Assembly: GCA_037308085.1 (NCBI GenBank)
Contig: CP147779.1
Span: 1-64,000, forward strand
From: Promethearchaeati archaeon SRVP18_Atabeyarchaeia-1
GTDB lineage: Archaea; Asgardarchaeota; Atabeyarchaeia; Atabeyarchaeales; Atabeyarchaeaceae
Length of the DNA stretch: 64,000 nt
Direction: 5' to 3'
Shown piece by piece: positions 33,732-39,362 of this stretch. Below the pieces are notes generated by a model, which was given only the letters and a program-made list of their open reading frames with translations, did not search any database and had not been told where the DNA came from. A program made the position numbers and the translations under genes. Each line of letters opens with the position of its first letter. Positions within the stretch are counted from its first letter, which is position 1.

Positions 33732-36700
33732 TTGCGGAACAAGAAATGCATTCGCAGAAGAGGCGATCCGATCAGGATAAGACATCATTCAGGAGTGAAA
33801 ACAAGCGTGATAGTCAAGGAACTTCCAAAGCAGCTCTTACTAAGAGAACTTGAGCAGAAGATCTTGGAAGAGTGGAAGCTCAACGGCACGTACGAGAAAG
33901 TGAAGCGACGACTAAAGGGCAAGCCCGTGTTTCGGTTTCAGGACGGACCGCCCTACACGACAGGTTCCATTCATTTGGGGACTGCTTGGAACAAGGTAAT
34001 GAAGGACATTGTTCTCCGTTATCGGAGAATGAGGGGGCTAAATGTGAATGATACGCCGGGCTACGACATGCATGGCCTGCCAATAGAGGTCAGGGTAGAG
34101 CAGGAGCTCAATATCAAGAGCAAGAAGGAGATAGAGGCGAATGTGGTCGGGTTTGTGGAGAGGTGCAGGGAGTTTGCGCTCACAAACTTGGAGAATATGA
34201 GCAGGCAGTTTGGCGAACTCGGGGTCTGGATGGACTGGAAGAAGCCGTACATGACTTTGAGTGACTCCTACATTGAGGGGATATGGCGAACAATCAAGCT
34301 GGCGTACGATAGAGGCTACGTGTATAGGGGAGTCAAAGTTCTTGAGGTCTGCCCTCGATGCGAGACTGCCCTCGCTAGGCACGAGCATGAGTACAAGACT
34401 GTGGAAGATGTCTCCATTTTCGTCAAGTTCAAGGTCAAAGACAAAGCCAATGAGTACATTCTGGTCTGGACCACCACTCCTTGGACTTTGCCGGCCAACT
34501 TGGCAGTTATGGTTCACCCAGATTATGATTATGTTAGAGTTAAGGTTGGAAATGAAGTCTGGATAGTCGCAGAAGCCCTGGCCACAGTCCTGATTCAGGG
34601 AACGTTTGAGAAAGACTTCAAGGTCATTGGTAAAGTCAAGGGTAGGGACCTTGAGGGGCTCCGATACGAGCACCCACTCGCCGAGGAGGTACCTGTTCAA
34701 GCCGAGTTTGACAAGAAGCTCAAGAAGGCGCACACGATCATTCTGAGCCCCGAGTACGTTACCCTTGAGCAGGGAACGGGGCTCGTCCACACTGCTCCCG
34801 GGCATGGACCTGAAGACTTCGAAGTCGGATCCAGAAATGGACTTCCTCCCTTCTCACCGGTAGATTACGCCAAGTTCACTTCAGATGCTGGCAAATATGC
34901 AGGGATGTTTCCGAAGAAAGCTGACCCGATCATAATTGAAGACTTGGAACGCAAAGGGTTGTTGTTATACAAGGGAACCATACAGCATGAGTACGCTCAC
35001 TGCTGGAGATGCCACAGCCCTCTCCTTTTCCAAGCTACTAACCAATGGTTCATCAAGGTGGCAACCCTGAAAGAGGAATTCGAGAGGAACAACGAGAAGA
35101 CTTACTGGGTTCCAGACTGGGCTGGGCATCAGTGGTTCAAGAACTGGATTGAGGGATTGCAGGACTGGTGCATATCTCGCCAGAGATACTGGGGAGCGCC
35201 ACTACCGATCTGGGTCTGCGACAAGTGTGGGGACGTGGAGGTTCTTGGCTCAAAAGACGAGCTTCTAAAGAGATCCGGAAGGGAGCCGAAGGAACTCCAC
35301 AGACCTTGGGTTGACGAGTTGACTTGGAAATGCAGGAAATGCCAAGGCAAGGGAACGAAGCGCAGAATACCTGACATACTCGACGTGTGGCTCGATAGCG
35401 GGTCATGCATCTGGGCCACAATGCCGGTCACAGCTGGATCAAAAGACTATGACAAGTGGGAAGAGCTAGACTTCATAATCGAAGGCAAGGAGCAAATACG
35501 GGGGTGGTTCAACTCCCTCATGTGCTCCAGTATGGTGGCGTACAATAGGTGGCCCTACAAGTCCGTCTACATGCACGGATTCATGTGTGACGAAAAGGGC
35601 AGAGAGATGCACAAGTCTCTGGGCAACTATATTGAGCCAGTGGAGGTCTTCTCAAAGCACGGGGTTGAGGCTTTCAGGTTCTACGTTGCCAAAGGAGCGC
35701 CACCTGGGGAGGATATCAGCTACAACTGGAAGGACGTTGCCGACACTGAGAGATTTCTCAACATAACCTGGAACGTCTACGTCTTCGCGTCGACTTTCAT
35801 GGCTGAGGCCAAGTTCGATCCCACGGAATCGAAGCTGGATGAAGGCAAACTTCAGCCTGAGGACCGCTGGATACTGTCTCGTGTAAATTTGGTGACTAAA
35901 CAAGTATCAGAGGCGCTCGAGAAGTACGTAATACCCGCGGTTCCAAGGCTACTGCAGGACCTCATAGTAAAAGATCTCAGCAGATGGTATGTGAAGCTTG
36001 TAAGAGGCAGGACGTGGGTCTCAACTTCAGGTCCGAGCAAGACCGCGGCTCTCAGCACACTATTCAACGTACTAGAGAGGCTCGCGTATCTGCTTGCCCC
36101 GATAACGCCTATTCTAGCAGAAGGACTCTATCAGTCCCTAATCAGGCCCGCCATGCCGAGAGCACAAGAGAGCATACACCTCTGCGACTGGCCGAAATAT
36201 GAAGAAGAGCAGATAAACCAAGAACTAGAGAGTAAAATGGATCGCGCCAGAGAGATAGTCGAAACAGCGCTCGCAATACGGCAAGAAGAAAAAGTGAAGC
36301 TCAGATGGCCCTGCCGCAGACTCCTGATAGTCCCCAAAGACAAAGAGCAAGTTGACGTATCGGAACTCTTAGACATAATCAGAGACCAAGCCAGCGTCAA
36401 GGAAGTACAGGTACTAAGAGAACTCCCAGAAAAAGACAAAACTGAGAACCTCAAGGAAAAGGAAATCCCATCAGCAACCATCTACCTCGACATGTCAACC
36501 TCAGAGGAACTTGAATCAGAACGACTAGCAAAGGACTTCACCCGACAAGTCCAAGCACTCCGCAAAAAGTACGGATACCACGTAAGCGAGAAAATAGAAC
36601 TAATAGTCGCAGCAGAAGACAAGCAAATAAGAGAACAACTAGAGACACAAGAGGAACCGATCAAGAACAAGATCGGAGCAGCAGAAATAAGGAAACTCCA

Positions 36701-36797
36701 GAAAATGCCAACAAACCTCCAAGACTACGACGCACAAGGCGAATTCACCTACCAAGGCACAAAAATAATAGTCGCCTTCAAACGAAAGAAAACTTAA
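33732..36797 (+). CDS. ileS: isoleucine--tRNA ligase (archaeal type)
   Basis: DGPPYTTG.IHLG, GYDMHGLPIE, WTTTPWTLPAN, GTGLVHTAPGHG, DWCISRQRYWG, EMHKS; real start likely GTG 33795 or 33807. Confidence 0.97.
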   Translation: MRNKKCIRRRGDPIRIRHHSGVKTSVIVKELPKQLLLRELEQKILEEWKLNGTYEKVKRRLKGKPVFRFQDGPPYTTGSIHLGTAWNKVMKDIVLRYRRMRGLNVNDTPGYDMHGLPIEVRVEQELNIKSKKEIEANVVGFVERCREFALTNLENMSRQFGELGVWMDWKKPYMTLSDSYIEGIWRTIKLAYDRGYVYRGVKVLEVCPRCETALARHEHEYKTVEDVSIFVKFKVKDKANEYILVWTTTPWTLPANLAVMVHPDYDYVRVKVGNEVWIVAEALATVLIQGTFEKDFKVIGKVKGRDLEGLRYEHPLAEEVPVQAEFDKKLKKAHTIILSPEYVTLEQGTGLVHTAPGHGPEDFEVGSRNGLPPFSPVDYAKFTSDAGKYAGMFPKKADPIIIEDLERKGLLLYKGTIQHEYAHCWRCHSPLLFQATNQWFIKVATLKEEFERNNEKTYWVPDWAGHQWFKNWIEGLQDWCISRQRYWGAPLPIWVCDKCGDVEVLGSKDELLKRSGREPKELHRPWVDELTWKCRKCQGKGTKRRIPDILDVWLDSGSCIWATMPVTAGSKDYDKWEELDFIIEGKEQIRGWFNSLMCSSMVAYNRWPYKSVYMHGFMCDEKGREMHKSLGNYIEPVEVFSKHGVEAFRFYVAKGAPPGEDISYNWKDVADTERFLNITWNVYVFASTFMAEAKFDPTESKLDEGKLQPEDRWILSRVNLVTKQVSEALEKYVIPAVPRLLQDLIVKDLSRWYVKLVRGRTWVSTSGPSKTAALSTLFNVLERLAYLLAPITPILAEGLYQSLIRPAMPRAQESIHLCDWPKYEEEQINQELESKMDRAREIVETALAIRQEEKVKLRWPCRRLLIVPKDKEQVDVSELLDIIRDQASVKEVQVLRELPEKDKTENLKEKEIPSATIYLDMSTSEELESERLAKDFTRQVQALRKKYGYHVSEKIELIVAAEDKQIREQLETQEEPIKNKIGAAEIRKLQKMPTNLQDYDAQGEFTYQGTKIIVAFKRKKT

Positions 36798-36839
36798 TAA
36801 CAAGAACAACGCAAAAAGACAAACAGAAAGCAATTCCCT

Positions 36840-37086
36840 GGGAGCGTAGCTTAGCCAAAGTATCACTGAGGGTTCGGTGATTCTCTAAACTGGCTTACTT
36901 TGGATACATCACAACTGATGTCTCCTTTAGTCCAGACGGAGCGCCGGACGAGTTCGCCAGTCGAACTCGGGTGAGCCTTATAAGGCAACGCTTCGTACAG
37001 CGGCTTTAGACAGCCGGAAGAACTAATGCGGGGAAAGAACCGCTGGTCCGGCAGAGCCGTGGGTTCAAATCCCATCGCTCCCACCA
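36840..37086 (+). tRNA. tRNA-Ile(UAU) with five BHB-type introns and encoded CCA
   Basis: exons 36840-36856, 36891-36895, 36938-36947, 36976-36982, 37012-37018 and 37055-37086 join into a complete 78-nt cloverleaf; anticodon TAT at 36979-36981. Confidence 0.88.
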
Positions 37087-37301
37087 TTTTCATCTGGCTT
37101 CTCGTTTATGCTCTCTGGCGCACAGGCGCGGGCTTCGGCACCTTAGCGCTCAAATCGCTCCAAGCTAGAGCTAGGAGTCCAGAACCTCCACCTAGCTTAT
37201 GGGTTTGTAGTATTCAAGCACAGCATAGTGCAAGCGCGTTCGTCGCTGGCATTTCCCATCTCATCCAAAAAAAAGGGGGAGGTGTGTATTTCTTTCTAGA
37301 A

Positions 37302-39362
37302 CTAGCAGCCCTTCCAGAAGGAGCCAATAGGTGTAGCGCTGAACTCGTAGTCTGCCCAGCCCGAAGACATCGTTGGCGTGATTATCATGATAGTGTAGAT
37401 TGGCTTGTTGGCGAATCCGAGTGATGCACCTTTCTGCGTCATCTCGCACAGCCACATATCCACGGGGACATAGACCGTGCCGCAGCAAGTCGGTATCACG
37501 GAGACCAATGTGACCTGCCATTTCACCGCAGGAGTCACTGGCGTCAGCTTGAATGAGTTGTCGCTCACACTTGCACTTTTGATGAACCATCCCTCATATT
37601 CAGCCGCCCAGTCGGTCATATAACGGAATCCGATCATCACTTTTTGTCCAGCGTAGGCAGAAAGGTCAAATGTCATTGTAGTCCATTCTGGCCACTCAGG
37701 GTTGTAGTCTGTTAGTCCTGGTAGATTCGCGATTATGTCAGGGTGCGCAGATGGATCGTAGTCGGAGGTCGTATAGGCATTTGACAGCGATGTCCATGTC
37801 TTACCTTTGTCCGTTGAGACCTGCACGAAGCCGAAGTCCCAGTAGGATTCTATTCCCCAACTCGTCACTAGTGTCAGGTATGGCTTTGATGGATTCACAT
37901 ACGCGCTTCCTTGTAGCAACGCGTTGTAGAGATCGGACGCTCCCGACCACCAGTAGCCCGCAGAACTATCATAGGTCCACCCAGCGATCCTGTCTCCACT
38001 AAAAGAGACTAGCCCTAGCTTATTCCAATTCTGGAACATGACGTAGTCGGTGCCGTAAGGTGCGATCTTTGATACACCAGTGTCGTAACCCAAGATGGTA
38101 TTTGTCGTCCCAAAGTCAGTGCCCTTCGTCATCGGAATCGGCAAGCCTGAGGTTTCATAGATTCTCACAGGGATGAAAGCAGGATCATTCAGGTTGATCG
38201 TCTTGTAGTTGTACTTTCCATTGCACGGGAAGTCTGACCGAACAAGGTTCGCTATTCTCATATCATGGTAGACCTGGTCGAAAGTCACTTTGTATCCGAA
38301 ATGCGCCAGAGCGCTGTTTACGCCGTCCATCCCCGGGATGCCTGTCTCAACGAAGTAACTTATGAAGGCAGCTCCGCCGTAGTGATCACTTAGGTAGATG
38401 GTCCACAAAGCAGCTATACCGTAGTCAGCCAAGATGTTTATGCCTCCCTGGTCGCCCCATTGCGTCAGCGAGTTGTCGGGCGTATAGAAGTAGCTGTTGA
38501 TGTCGCTGACAGGTGCTCCGTATCCACAGAGAACTTGGGCGTACATGCTGCACCCCTCGTTCATGTACAGATCGTCGGCAGGTTGCCAGTCGTTGTGTAT
38601 CAGGTGCTGGTATTCATGTGCGAGTGTGCCCTCGTAGTCGAAAGCATGATTGGCAGGAACTGCAACCCCCTGTATCCACTCGGTGCCAGTGGGTCCCAGT
38701 CGCCTTTCCCATTGATAGCAGTCTATTGTTACAGTGTTCCTGTCAAAGTAGTAGTCGTATGCACTGGTGAACACACCGGCCACGTAGTATGGGTAGGTTG
38801 GATCGTAGTAGTTCTGGTCTCTGATATTCGCGACCAGTACCACGCTCCTGCCGGATGGATCAGCATAATAGTCAGCTGGCAGGCCGAGAATCCCCGGCAA
38901 GGCTGCGTTGGAACCGTCTCTGAAAGCTGGGTCGCCGAAGTACTTCGTGTCAGTGGGGTAGATATTGTTCTCAAATTGCCCAAAGAGGTACGCTATCTCC
39001 GTGTCGAGTACCTGTGGGGTAGGTCTGGTGTCACCTGCTCGCCATGCTAGGCTTACTTGTACCCAGATCTCACACACGTTGCCTAACGCAACTAGCGTAA
39101 AGGGTGCAAGCCTAACGCTGTTGTAGTAGTCGTCGAGTACCAGCCAGTACGCTATGTCTCCCACGTTGAAGTATGAGTGGTGGCTCGGTCCCTGAATAGG
39201 CTCTTCGACGCTGCAAGGATATAGTGGGGCATTTGCGATGTCTATCGCCTTGTAGTCTTGAGAGTCAACTGGTTGGGCCTTTACGGCCGGCACGACAGGC
39301 GCAAAAGCGAACGCTGAGATCAACATCGTAGCCATTATCAGAAATACAACTGCTCTTCTCAT
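37302..39362 (-). CDS. secreted zinc metallopeptidase (immune inhibitor A/M6/M30-like)
   Basis: signal peptide, TLAHEYQHLIH, MNEG, C-terminal WDFGFVQVSTD...FRYMTD beta domain. Confidence 0.85.
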   Translation of the reverse strand: MRRAVVFLIMATMLISAFAFAPVVPAVKAQPVDSQDYKAIDIANAPLYPCSVEEPIQGPSHHSYFNVGDIAYWLVLDDYYNSVRLAPFTLVALGNVCEIWVQVSLAWRAGDTRPTPQVLDTEIAYLFGQFENNIYPTDTKYFGDPAFRDGSNAALPGILGLPADYYADPSGRSVVLVANIRDQNYYDPTYPYYVAGVFTSAYDYYFDRNTVTIDCYQWERRLGPTGTEWIQGVAVPANHAFDYEGTLAHEYQHLIHNDWQPADDLYMNEGCSMYAQVLCGYGAPVSDINSYFYTPDNSLTQWGDQGGINILADYGIAALWTIYLSDHYGGAAFISYFVETGIPGMDGVNSALAHFGYKVTFDQVYHDMRIANLVRSDFPCNGKYNYKTINLNDPAFIPVRIYETSGLPIPMTKGTDFGTTNTILGYDTGVSKIAPYGTDYVMFQNWNKLGLVSFSGDRIAGWTYDSSAGYWWSGASDLYNALLQGSAYVNPSKPYLTLVTSWGIESYWDFGFVQVSTDKGKTWTSLSNAYTTSDYDPSAHPDIIANLPGLTDYNPEWPEWTTMTFDLSAYAGQKVMIGFRYMTDWAAEYEGWFIKSASVSDNSFKLTPVTPAVKWQVTLVSVIPTCCGTVYVPVDMWLCEMTQKGASLGFANKPIYTIMIITPTMSSGWADYEFSATPIGSFWKGC

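Follow-up and report, generated by a model that had tools for sequence, protein, structure and literature searches.

The tRNA-Ile(UAU) gene of the Asgard archaeon Atabeyarchaeia-1 occupies 247 nucleotides (nt) on the forward strand of the stretch of DNA analysed here (positions 1 to 64,000 of contig CP147779.1, hereafter the window), between window positions 36840 and 37086. It is composed of six exons and five introns, and its CCA end is encoded in the genome. Comparison of sequences confirmed this span as a real tRNA-Ile(UAU) gene with five introns, at the coordinates that a first-pass annotation of the same DNA had given. It is, in our view, highly probable that the gene yields a functional tRNA, which would be the probable sole decoder of AUA codons, and that its five bulge-helix-bulge (BHB) introns are cut by an (alpha-beta)2-type EndA splicing endonuclease and the exons joined by RtcB.

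All boundaries, exon and intron sequences and their lengths were reproduced from the window as the first-pass annotation had given them, including the 5-10-nt internal exons, the intron total of 169 nt and the 78 nt of the joined exons (Table 1). ARAGORN calls the joined 78-mer tRNA-Ile(tat) with a standard cloverleaf, in agreement with the complete cloverleaf claimed for it. The spliced sequence comprises a 7-bp acceptor stem, a 4-bp D-stem, a 5-bp anticodon stem, a 5-nt variable loop, a standard T-arm, A73 and CCA, and it contains all of the invariant nucleotides U8, A14, G18, G19, U33, G53, T54, T55, C56, A58 and C61. The anticodon UAU lies in the 7-nt loop CTTATAA with U33 and A37; loop and discriminator A73 are the same in four of four orthologs. 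Exons 1 and 6 alone suffice for a fully paired 7-bp acceptor stem, for U8 and for a textbook T-arm. All six exons follow one another in order on a single strand of the 247-nt span, and the gene is therefore neither split nor permuted.

Table 1. Coordinates of the tRNA-Ile(UAU) gene, its exons and introns and the adjoining features in the window.
Feature	Position	Strand	Remarks
ileS, isoleucyl-tRNA synthetase	33732..36797	+	stop codon 43 nt before the tRNA gene
TTAATAA, possible TATA box (tentative)	36794..36800	+	overlaps the ileS stop codon, -46 to -40
Exon 1, 17 nt	36840..36856	+	acceptor 5' strand, U8, D-stem 5' strand, D-loop to C17
Intron 1, 34 nt	36857..36890	+	position 17/17a; among the four orthologs in this genome only
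Exon 2, 5 nt, TGGCT	36891..36895	+	carries G18 and G19; joined to exon 1 as contiguous DNA in G002 and G001
Intron 2, 42 nt	36896..36937	+	position 20a/21; common to all four orthologs
Exon 3, 10 nt	36938..36947	+	D-stem 3' strand, G26, anticodon-stem positions 27-30
Intron 3, 28 nt	36948..36975	+	position 30/31, within the anticodon stem; in this genome only
Exon 4, 7 nt, CCTTATA	36976..36982	+	C31 to A37, includes anticodon UAU
Intron 4, 29 nt	36983..37011	+	canonical 37/38; common to all four orthologs
Exon 5, 7 nt, AGCCGGA	37012..37018	+	A38, anticodon-stem 3' strand, A44
Intron 5, 36 nt	37019..37054	+	position 44/45; common to all four orthologs
Exon 6, 32 nt	37055..37086	+	variable loop, T-arm GTGGG-TTCAAAT-CCCAT, acceptor 3' strand, A73, CCA
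TTTT run, putative archaeal oligo-T terminator	37087..37090	+	directly 3' of CCA

The gene follows ileS, which encodes isoleucyl-tRNA synthetase (IleRS; NCBIfam TIGR00392, 912.6 bits against a cut-off of 621; Pfam tRNA-synt_1, Anticodon_1 and DUF5915). With the IleRS C-terminus as anchor, the same arrangement of ileS and then tRNA-Ile(UAU) was recovered in the closed genome of Atabeyarchaeia-2 (G002), in a draft genome of the same family (G001) and on a metagenome contig (L070). In each of the four, the tRNA gene stands 43 nt behind ileS. The IleRS C-terminus of L070 is 74% identical, and this contig is the sole close relative from a scan of metagenome IleRS proteins; a metagenome search with a pattern linking the end of ileS to the start of the tRNA gave 0 matches. 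When spliced, each of the three orthologous genes is called tRNA-Ile(tat) by ARAGORN, and the four sequences align gap-free over 75 nt. Intron number varies among these relatives, with five introns here (17/17a, 20a/21, 30/31, 37/38, 44/45, the positions previously assigned), four in G002 (20a/21, 28/29, 37/38, 44/45), four in L070 (15/16, 20a/21, 37/38, 44/45) and three in G001 (20a/21, 37/38, 44/45), which makes seven distinct positions in all.

This variation fixes two of the junctions without recourse to the BHB rule, as orthologous DNA is contiguous where the relatives have no intron. The junction of exons 1 and 2 is uninterrupted as GCTTAGCCTGGCT in G002 and as GCTCAGCCTGGCT in G001, while the D-loop DNA of L070 is interrupted at 15/16 instead of 17/17a. 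The junction of exons 3 and 4 is likewise uninterrupted in G001 and L070, reading GGAGCGCCGGCCTTATA. As introns 2, 4 and 5 occur in all four orthologs, this test applies to introns 1 and 3 only. A purpose-written, motif-free spliced aligner with a fixed intron penalty, queried with the mature sequences of the relatives, recovered introns 1-3 at boundaries that give the identical spliced sequence. Queries from other isoacceptors (Freyarchaeia Ile2-CAU, Ile-GAU, Thr and Val) were too divergent to place the micro-exons.

The spliced sequences also carry the imprint of a conserved structure. All stem cells are paired across the four sequences (84/84), and both sides have changed in 7 of the 21 base pairs (linear positions 4:71, 5:70, 7:68, 13:24, 29:45, 51:67 and 52:66), the partners often lying in different exons. 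Exons are 81-87% identical among the orthologs and the three shared introns 55-79%, with intron 2 reaching 79% against its G002 counterpart. Exon 5, set between introns that have diverged, is conserved: it reads AGCCGGA or AGCCGTA in each of the four orthologs, and in G002 its T43 co-varies with A27.

Each intron is bordered by a candidate BHB motif, taken here as a 4-bp central helix between two 3-nt bulges with the cut after the second bulge nucleotide. Helices and bulges sit where the first-pass annotation had placed them, down to a single mismatch in intron 4. The central helices of introns 1 (TTAG/CTAA), 2 (CTGG/CCAG), 3 (CGCC/GGTG) and 5 (GCCG/CGGC) are fully paired. The bulges of intron 1 read CC-A and AC-T, and its inner side consists of one pair, a bulged A and then a long hairpin. 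In introns 2-5, inner helices of 2-8 bp directly adjoin the central helix, and introns 2, 3 and 5 have at least two contiguous flanking pairs. Intron 2 has a 3-bp inner helix beside the central helix, intron 3 an 8-bp inner and a 3-bp outer helix, and intron 4 a 3-bp inner helix, its outer helix being the anticodon stem, available after removal of intron 3. At random genome positions, or with the boundaries shifted within the gene, a fully paired helix with a flanking helix arises in only 0.4-0.5% of cases, so that the observed motifs stand far above chance; a helix of at least three of four pairs arises in about 15%. Where junctions can slide without altering the spliced sequence, the motif appears only in the register given here.

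A need for this tRNA is indicated by the way in which AUA codons are read. Most archaea use tRNA-Ile2(CAU), which is agmatidine-modified by TiaS, and tRNA-Ile(UAU) is known in Korarchaeum cryptofilum and Nanoarchaeum equitans, the Korarchaeum gene having one intron (PMC6000648). The TiaS domain PF08489 has no match in this closed genome, in the closed G002 genome or in G001; it is matched in a closed Freyarchaeia genome, for which the published table lists Ile2-CAT, and in four of four archaeal control genomes. AUA is nevertheless in use: in open reading frames (ORFs) of at least 300 amino acids it accounts for 36% of Ile codons and occurs 23.6 times per 1000 codons, with 30 AUA codons in ileS itself. 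Neither spliced alignment nor a scan for compact UAU anticodon arms revealed a second UAU tRNA in the genome. As TiaS is missing, AUA is used and no second UAU tRNA was found, the five-intron gene is probably the only AUA decoder of this genome. Charging by IleRS is suggested by one thing, the adjacency of ileS.

Looking more broadly, PF08489 was found in 23 of 41 Asgard genomes searched and was missing from every sampled member of families f1, f2, f9, f12 and f15, several of these genomes being closed or nearly complete. Agmatidine-independent AUA decoding may thus be widespread in Asgard archaea. A scan of 400 Asgard genomes for a compact UAU anticodon arm with up to three mismatches returned no convincing tRNA-Ile(UAU); as genes with a 37/38 intron are invisible to this pattern, the result does not amount to absence.

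The genome encodes enzymes that would suit such a precursor. Of two EndA paralogs, P0001 (209 amino acids; G000:C1:202595-203221, -) has as its nearest solved structure the catalytic alpha subunit of Aeropyrum pernix (3p1z_B, E 5e-46) and retains the GPGIDHAPFIVHA and VRKKF segments. In alignment, its K64 and K66 take the places of K44 and R46 in the Crenarchaea-specific loop of the A. pernix enzyme, a loop that confers broad substrate specificity (PMC3241643). P0002 (241 amino acids; G000:C1:623841-624563, +) matches the N-terminal structural half of two-repeat EndAs and, by eye, lacks a His where the catalytic one would be expected. RtcB is also encoded (583 bits). The pair would fit the (alpha-beta)2 type of enzyme that cuts non-canonical BHB introns. 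We postulate that a precursor of about 250 nt is transcribed from the gene, that the host's two-subunit (alpha-beta)2 endonuclease excises the five introns and that RtcB joins the six exons to a 75-nt tRNA plus the encoded CCA.

Several of the motifs overlap and would compete for the same nucleotides. Two neighbouring nucleotides, the one that closes intron 1 and the one that opens exon 2, belong both to the 3' bulge of motif 1 and to the central helix of motif 2. Motif 3 has its central helix at positions 25-28 and its outer helix at C32, U33 and U34, which clashes with the D-stem, with the anticodon stem and with the central helix of motif 4. Motif 5 places its central helix on positions 39-42, which form the 3' strand of the anticodon stem. 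Between them, introns 3 and 5 would therefore engage both strands of the future anticodon stem in their central helices. Since this stem is the outer helix of motif 4 and can form only after introns 3 and 5 have gone, the canonical intron is expected to leave last. In the likeliest course, the four ectopic introns would be removed first, in a partly flexible order, and the canonical intron thereafter. For the three-intron tRNA-Ile(UAU) of Cyanidioschyzon merolae, removal of non-canonical before canonical introns was found by experiment (PMC3728597).

These conflicts could be taken further. Overlapping BHB motifs might impose an obligatory splicing cascade in which the canonical intron, whose helix pairs with the anticodon, comes last and perhaps supports a modification of the UAU anticodon that depends on this intron, in the manner of eukaryotic tRNA-Ile(UAU). 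We regard this as speculative and rather unlikely; if true, this TiaS-less Asgard lineage would provide a prokaryotic counterpart of the eukaryotic way of reading AUA.

A number of observations weigh against a five-intron gene spliced in this manner. Position 21 of the spliced sequence is G instead of the usual A. The helix of the canonical intron 4, CTTA/TTAG, pairs at three of four positions with a U-U mismatch and belongs to the relaxed class, and intron 1 has one contiguous flanking pair per side, which makes it 'relaxed' under the strict rule. Folding with ViennaRNA, a partly informative test of the motifs that we applied to the primary transcript and to partly spliced states, makes only the helices of introns 2 (probability 0.81) and 5 (0.98) likely in the primary transcript, with 0.22 for intron 1 and a low value for intron 3. 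The intron 4 helix is given a probability of about 0 in all splicing states modelled, and a BHB forced at this intron lies 8.5-10.8 kcal/mol above the minimum-free-energy fold (8.5 when it is the last intron left). Finally, we infer the exact junctions, the expression and the mature product from the DNA. Other results of the same kind are more favourable: the intron 3 helix climbs to 0.4-0.8 once introns 1 and 2 are out, forcing a strict BHB on the last remaining intron costs 0.3-5.4 kcal/mol for the introns other than intron 4, and in G001 the motif of the canonical intron is the minimum-free-energy structure. The U-U mismatch also occurs in L070 (G002 and G001 carry TGAG, which pairs 4/4), and it has thus been tolerated in at least two lineages and has persisted since their split.

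The weak canonical BHB and G21 would also suit a decaying pseudogene, in which a one-time tRNA-Ile gene has taken up insertions and its transcript is no longer processed to a working tRNA, as would the absence of this copy from the published tRNA table. The G002 ortholog, moreover, is listed there (PMC11291895) at 35441-35652 as Ile-TAT with 2 introns, 52.4 bits and the tRNAscan-SE flag 'possible pseudo'. This flag, however, arose because the caller left introns in, recognizing only two in a 212-nt gene. Decay is also at odds with the complete stem pairing across the four species and its seven compensatory pairs, with the BHB register of every insertion and with the persistence of the mismatch shared with L070. 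With no TiaS and no other UAU tRNA found, AUA still makes up more than a third of Ile codons in long ORFs. The covariation and the probable role as sole AUA decoder together argue strongly against a pseudogene, which we consider very unlikely.

It is also highly improbable that the gene has four introns, with introns 4 and 5 and exon 5 leaving together as one 63-nt intron (36985-37047, position 39/40) and an 80-nt tRNA with a 7-nt variable loop as the product. ARAGORN likewise calls this product tRNA-Ile(tat), a further point to be set against five introns, and the intron-penalised spliced aligner prefers to skip the 7-nt exon 5. The joint intron would, however, have a central helix of two of four pairs, with no better register within 3 nt either way, and exon 5 is flanked by a BHB helix on each side. 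The canonical intron of the other three orthologs (G002, G001 and L070) opens with C or T, so that A38 can be supplied there by exon 5 only and the four-intron arrangement is inapplicable. We rejected it on the grounds of this junction, the source of A38, the conservation of exon 5 between diverged introns and the T43-A27 covariation. That the cloverleaf is an artefact of freely deleting five segments from 247 nt has a practically negligible probability: although the boundaries had been picked by the BHB rule itself and helices of at least three of four pairs arise at about 15% of arbitrary boundaries, exons 1 and 6 alone supply the acceptor stem, U8 and T-arm, four orthologs stand in conserved synteny, and the two contiguous junctions and the stem pairing of the spliced orthologs effectively refute chance.

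The five-intron gene had been predicted to escape standard tRNA finders, and it does. In the unspliced 64-kb window no tRNA was reported by ARAGORN, with or without intron mode, or by an Rfam search at the gathering threshold; at a permissive E<=10 the Rfam tRNA model gives just a 16.8-bit partial match at 37031-37083. Throughout the genome (one closed contig of 2,808,651 bp) only 13 genes pass the Rfam tRNA cut-off, and their starts equal coordinates listed for SRVP_Atabeyarchaeota_1_curated.FINAL in Supplementary Data 4 of Valentin-Alvarado et al. 2024 (PMC11291895), who describe an Atabeyarchaeia-1 genome of 2.81 Mbp. According to that study, 92-95% of the tRNA genes of Atabeyarchaeia-1 and two sister genomes contain introns, over half of them several, many at non-canonical positions. 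Its tRNAscan-SE/R2DT table for Atabeyarchaeia-1 holds 40 tRNAs, with no Ile tRNA, no entry before coordinate 196286 and a maximum length of 229 nt, and the tables of all three genomes reach at most 4 introns per gene. The gene described here, with five introns in 247 nt, is consequently missing from the published annotation. Heavy interruption of tRNA genes in this organism is thus already published; the five-intron tRNA-Ile(UAU) gene is an extreme case of it. An exact search of the genome contig collection with its 3' exon gave 0 matches.

A bioRxiv preprint of October 2026 (10.64898/2026.10.13.758758) sets this gene in a wider frame. It presents a motif-free census for 90 Asgard genomes and gives the number of intervening sequences as 'up to five in a single gene', with an average of 2.2 per gene in these families and many missed D-arm insertions. 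It also reports enrichment at BHB boundaries, gains that recur in separate lineages, and, for most genomes, an EndA of two paralogs. The census takes tRNAscan-SE calls as its starting point and keeps predicted pseudogenes out of the burden estimates, so that it probably omits the present gene, or counts the G002 ortholog only partly.

For the Thermoproteales, whose multi-intron tRNAs had served the first-pass annotation as yardstick, a maximum of three introns is indeed the known figure (Sugahara 2008; Fujishima 2010; review PMC4033280), yet as a general limit it is out of date, given four introns in the tables of this lineage and the 'up to five' of the preprint. Five introns had also been called extreme. 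The gene is the most interrupted tRNA gene found in this genome, but it equals the reported maximum and is not unprecedented.

The introns appear to be of different ages. The three shared introns (20a/21, 37/38 and 44/45) predate the split of the four lineages, as judged by their distribution, and would have been inherited from the common ancestor of the family. Lineage-specific introns occupy four different positions, 17/17a and 30/31 here, 28/29 in G002 and 15/16 in L070. In the only pair compared, the 30/31 intron and the 28-nt 28/29 intron of G002, 17 of 28 positions agree in a global alignment, with no clear likeness. Separate recent gains are the simplest reading, with 17/17a and 30/31 acquired in this lineage, and this agrees with the repeated gains of the preprint. 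A blastn-short search of the genome for paralogs of the five introns returned chance matches of 11-16 nt only, and there is hence no sign of intron copying or 'transposition' between tRNA genes.

Compared to known systems, the gene resembles the multi-intron tRNAs of the Thermoproteales in its BHB introns at non-canonical positions, the crenarchaeal-type (alpha-beta)2 EndA with its specificity loop and the rapid gain of introns. Thermoproteales introns, however, recur as related sequences across tRNA genes, unlike the five introns here. The C. merolae tRNA-Ile(UAU) is the same isoacceptor and likewise combines canonical and ectopic BHB introns; it is eukaryotic, has its three introns at D-stem and T-loop sites and is backed by RNA, whereas the present gene is known from DNA alone. 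Korarchaeum and Nanoarchaeum share archaeal AUA decoding through a UAU anticodon, but their genes have at most one intron, in contrast to five introns in a gene behind ileS in an Asgard lineage.

Regarding the surroundings of the gene, T-rich runs also lie 3' of the orthologous tRNA genes, and AT-rich boxes are present 25-55 nt upstream of several other tRNA genes of this genome; the gene may also be co-transcribed with ileS. No contig of four metatranscriptome contig sets was placed on window positions 36650-37250, a result uninformative on expression either way. A 132-amino-acid ORF (37026-37424, +) without a Pfam family overlaps the 3' third of the tRNA gene; it is probably spurious, of the sort that gene callers could set over an unannotated tRNA. 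The downstream neighbour (37302-39362, -) encodes a 686-amino-acid protein with an InhA-like MAM domain (PF20773, 51 bits) as its sole match. The flank 3' of the tRNA in G002 has no likeness by eye over the roughly 250 nt read, and the conserved ileS-tRNA unit seems to end after the tRNA. G002 also contains a decayed partial tRNA-Ile(UAU) copy (G002:C1:126587-126700, -), which begins within the canonical intron and runs up to the acceptor 3' strand; the intact gene lies 91 kb away on the opposite strand. Its CGCTCTC is nearer to the version of this genome than to CGGGCCC of G002 itself, and its T-loop is degenerate (ATACAAT); it may be the relic of a rearrangement or integration event.

Other tRNA genes of this genome, outside the window, are similarly obscured. 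An unlisted tRNA-Ile(GAU) at G000:C1:447829-448042 (+) spans 214 nt, 25 nt upstream of tRNA-Ala(CGC); with the Freyarchaeia Ile-GAT as reference, its spliced alignment scores 63, where the null maximum is 36. Roughly four segments interrupt it, near 13/14, 36/37, 43/44 and 59/60; it is called tRNA-Ile(gat) by ARAGORN when spliced, and shares the T-loop TCCGAAT (C at 55) with the Freyarchaeia gene. A tRNA-Leu(GAG) at G000:C1:259535-259747 (+), also not in the published table, reaches a score of 104 against the spliced Leu-GAG of G002 and is interrupted by three or more segments. Two published entries look mis-typed: 'Pro TGG' (808 kb; G000:C1:808089-808245, -) aligns near-perfectly to the Thr(GGT) of G002, including the anticodon loop CTTGGTAA, and 'His GTG, possible pseudo' (366 kb; G000:C1:366154-366350, -) sits where G002 has Val(GAC) and is best aligned by a Val(GAC) query. 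No tRNA-Asp(GUC) was found when the whole genome was searched by spliced alignment with the Freyarchaeia Asp tRNA: the Glu-CTC gene matched best, and the remaining scores did not rise above the null. The published tables for this genome and for G002 likewise have no Asp entry, and the gene may be even more disrupted, split or permuted. Initiator Met and Val-GAC are among the other isoacceptors that the published tables lack.

With the five-intron tRNA-Ile(UAU) gene, a complete Asgard reference genome for which no Ile tRNA had been published gains one that was missing and is probably essential. As standard callers drop the most interrupted genes altogether, estimates of intron burden for these lineages are still too low. 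With 3, 4, 4 and 5 introns at seven positions, a single gene documents, with unusual clarity and independently of the motif, that introns were gained recently and repeatedly. Its micro-exons of 5-10 nt and mutually exclusive motifs furthermore make it a demanding natural substrate for exploring the limits of an archaeal splicing endonuclease and whether RNA folding sets the order of splicing.

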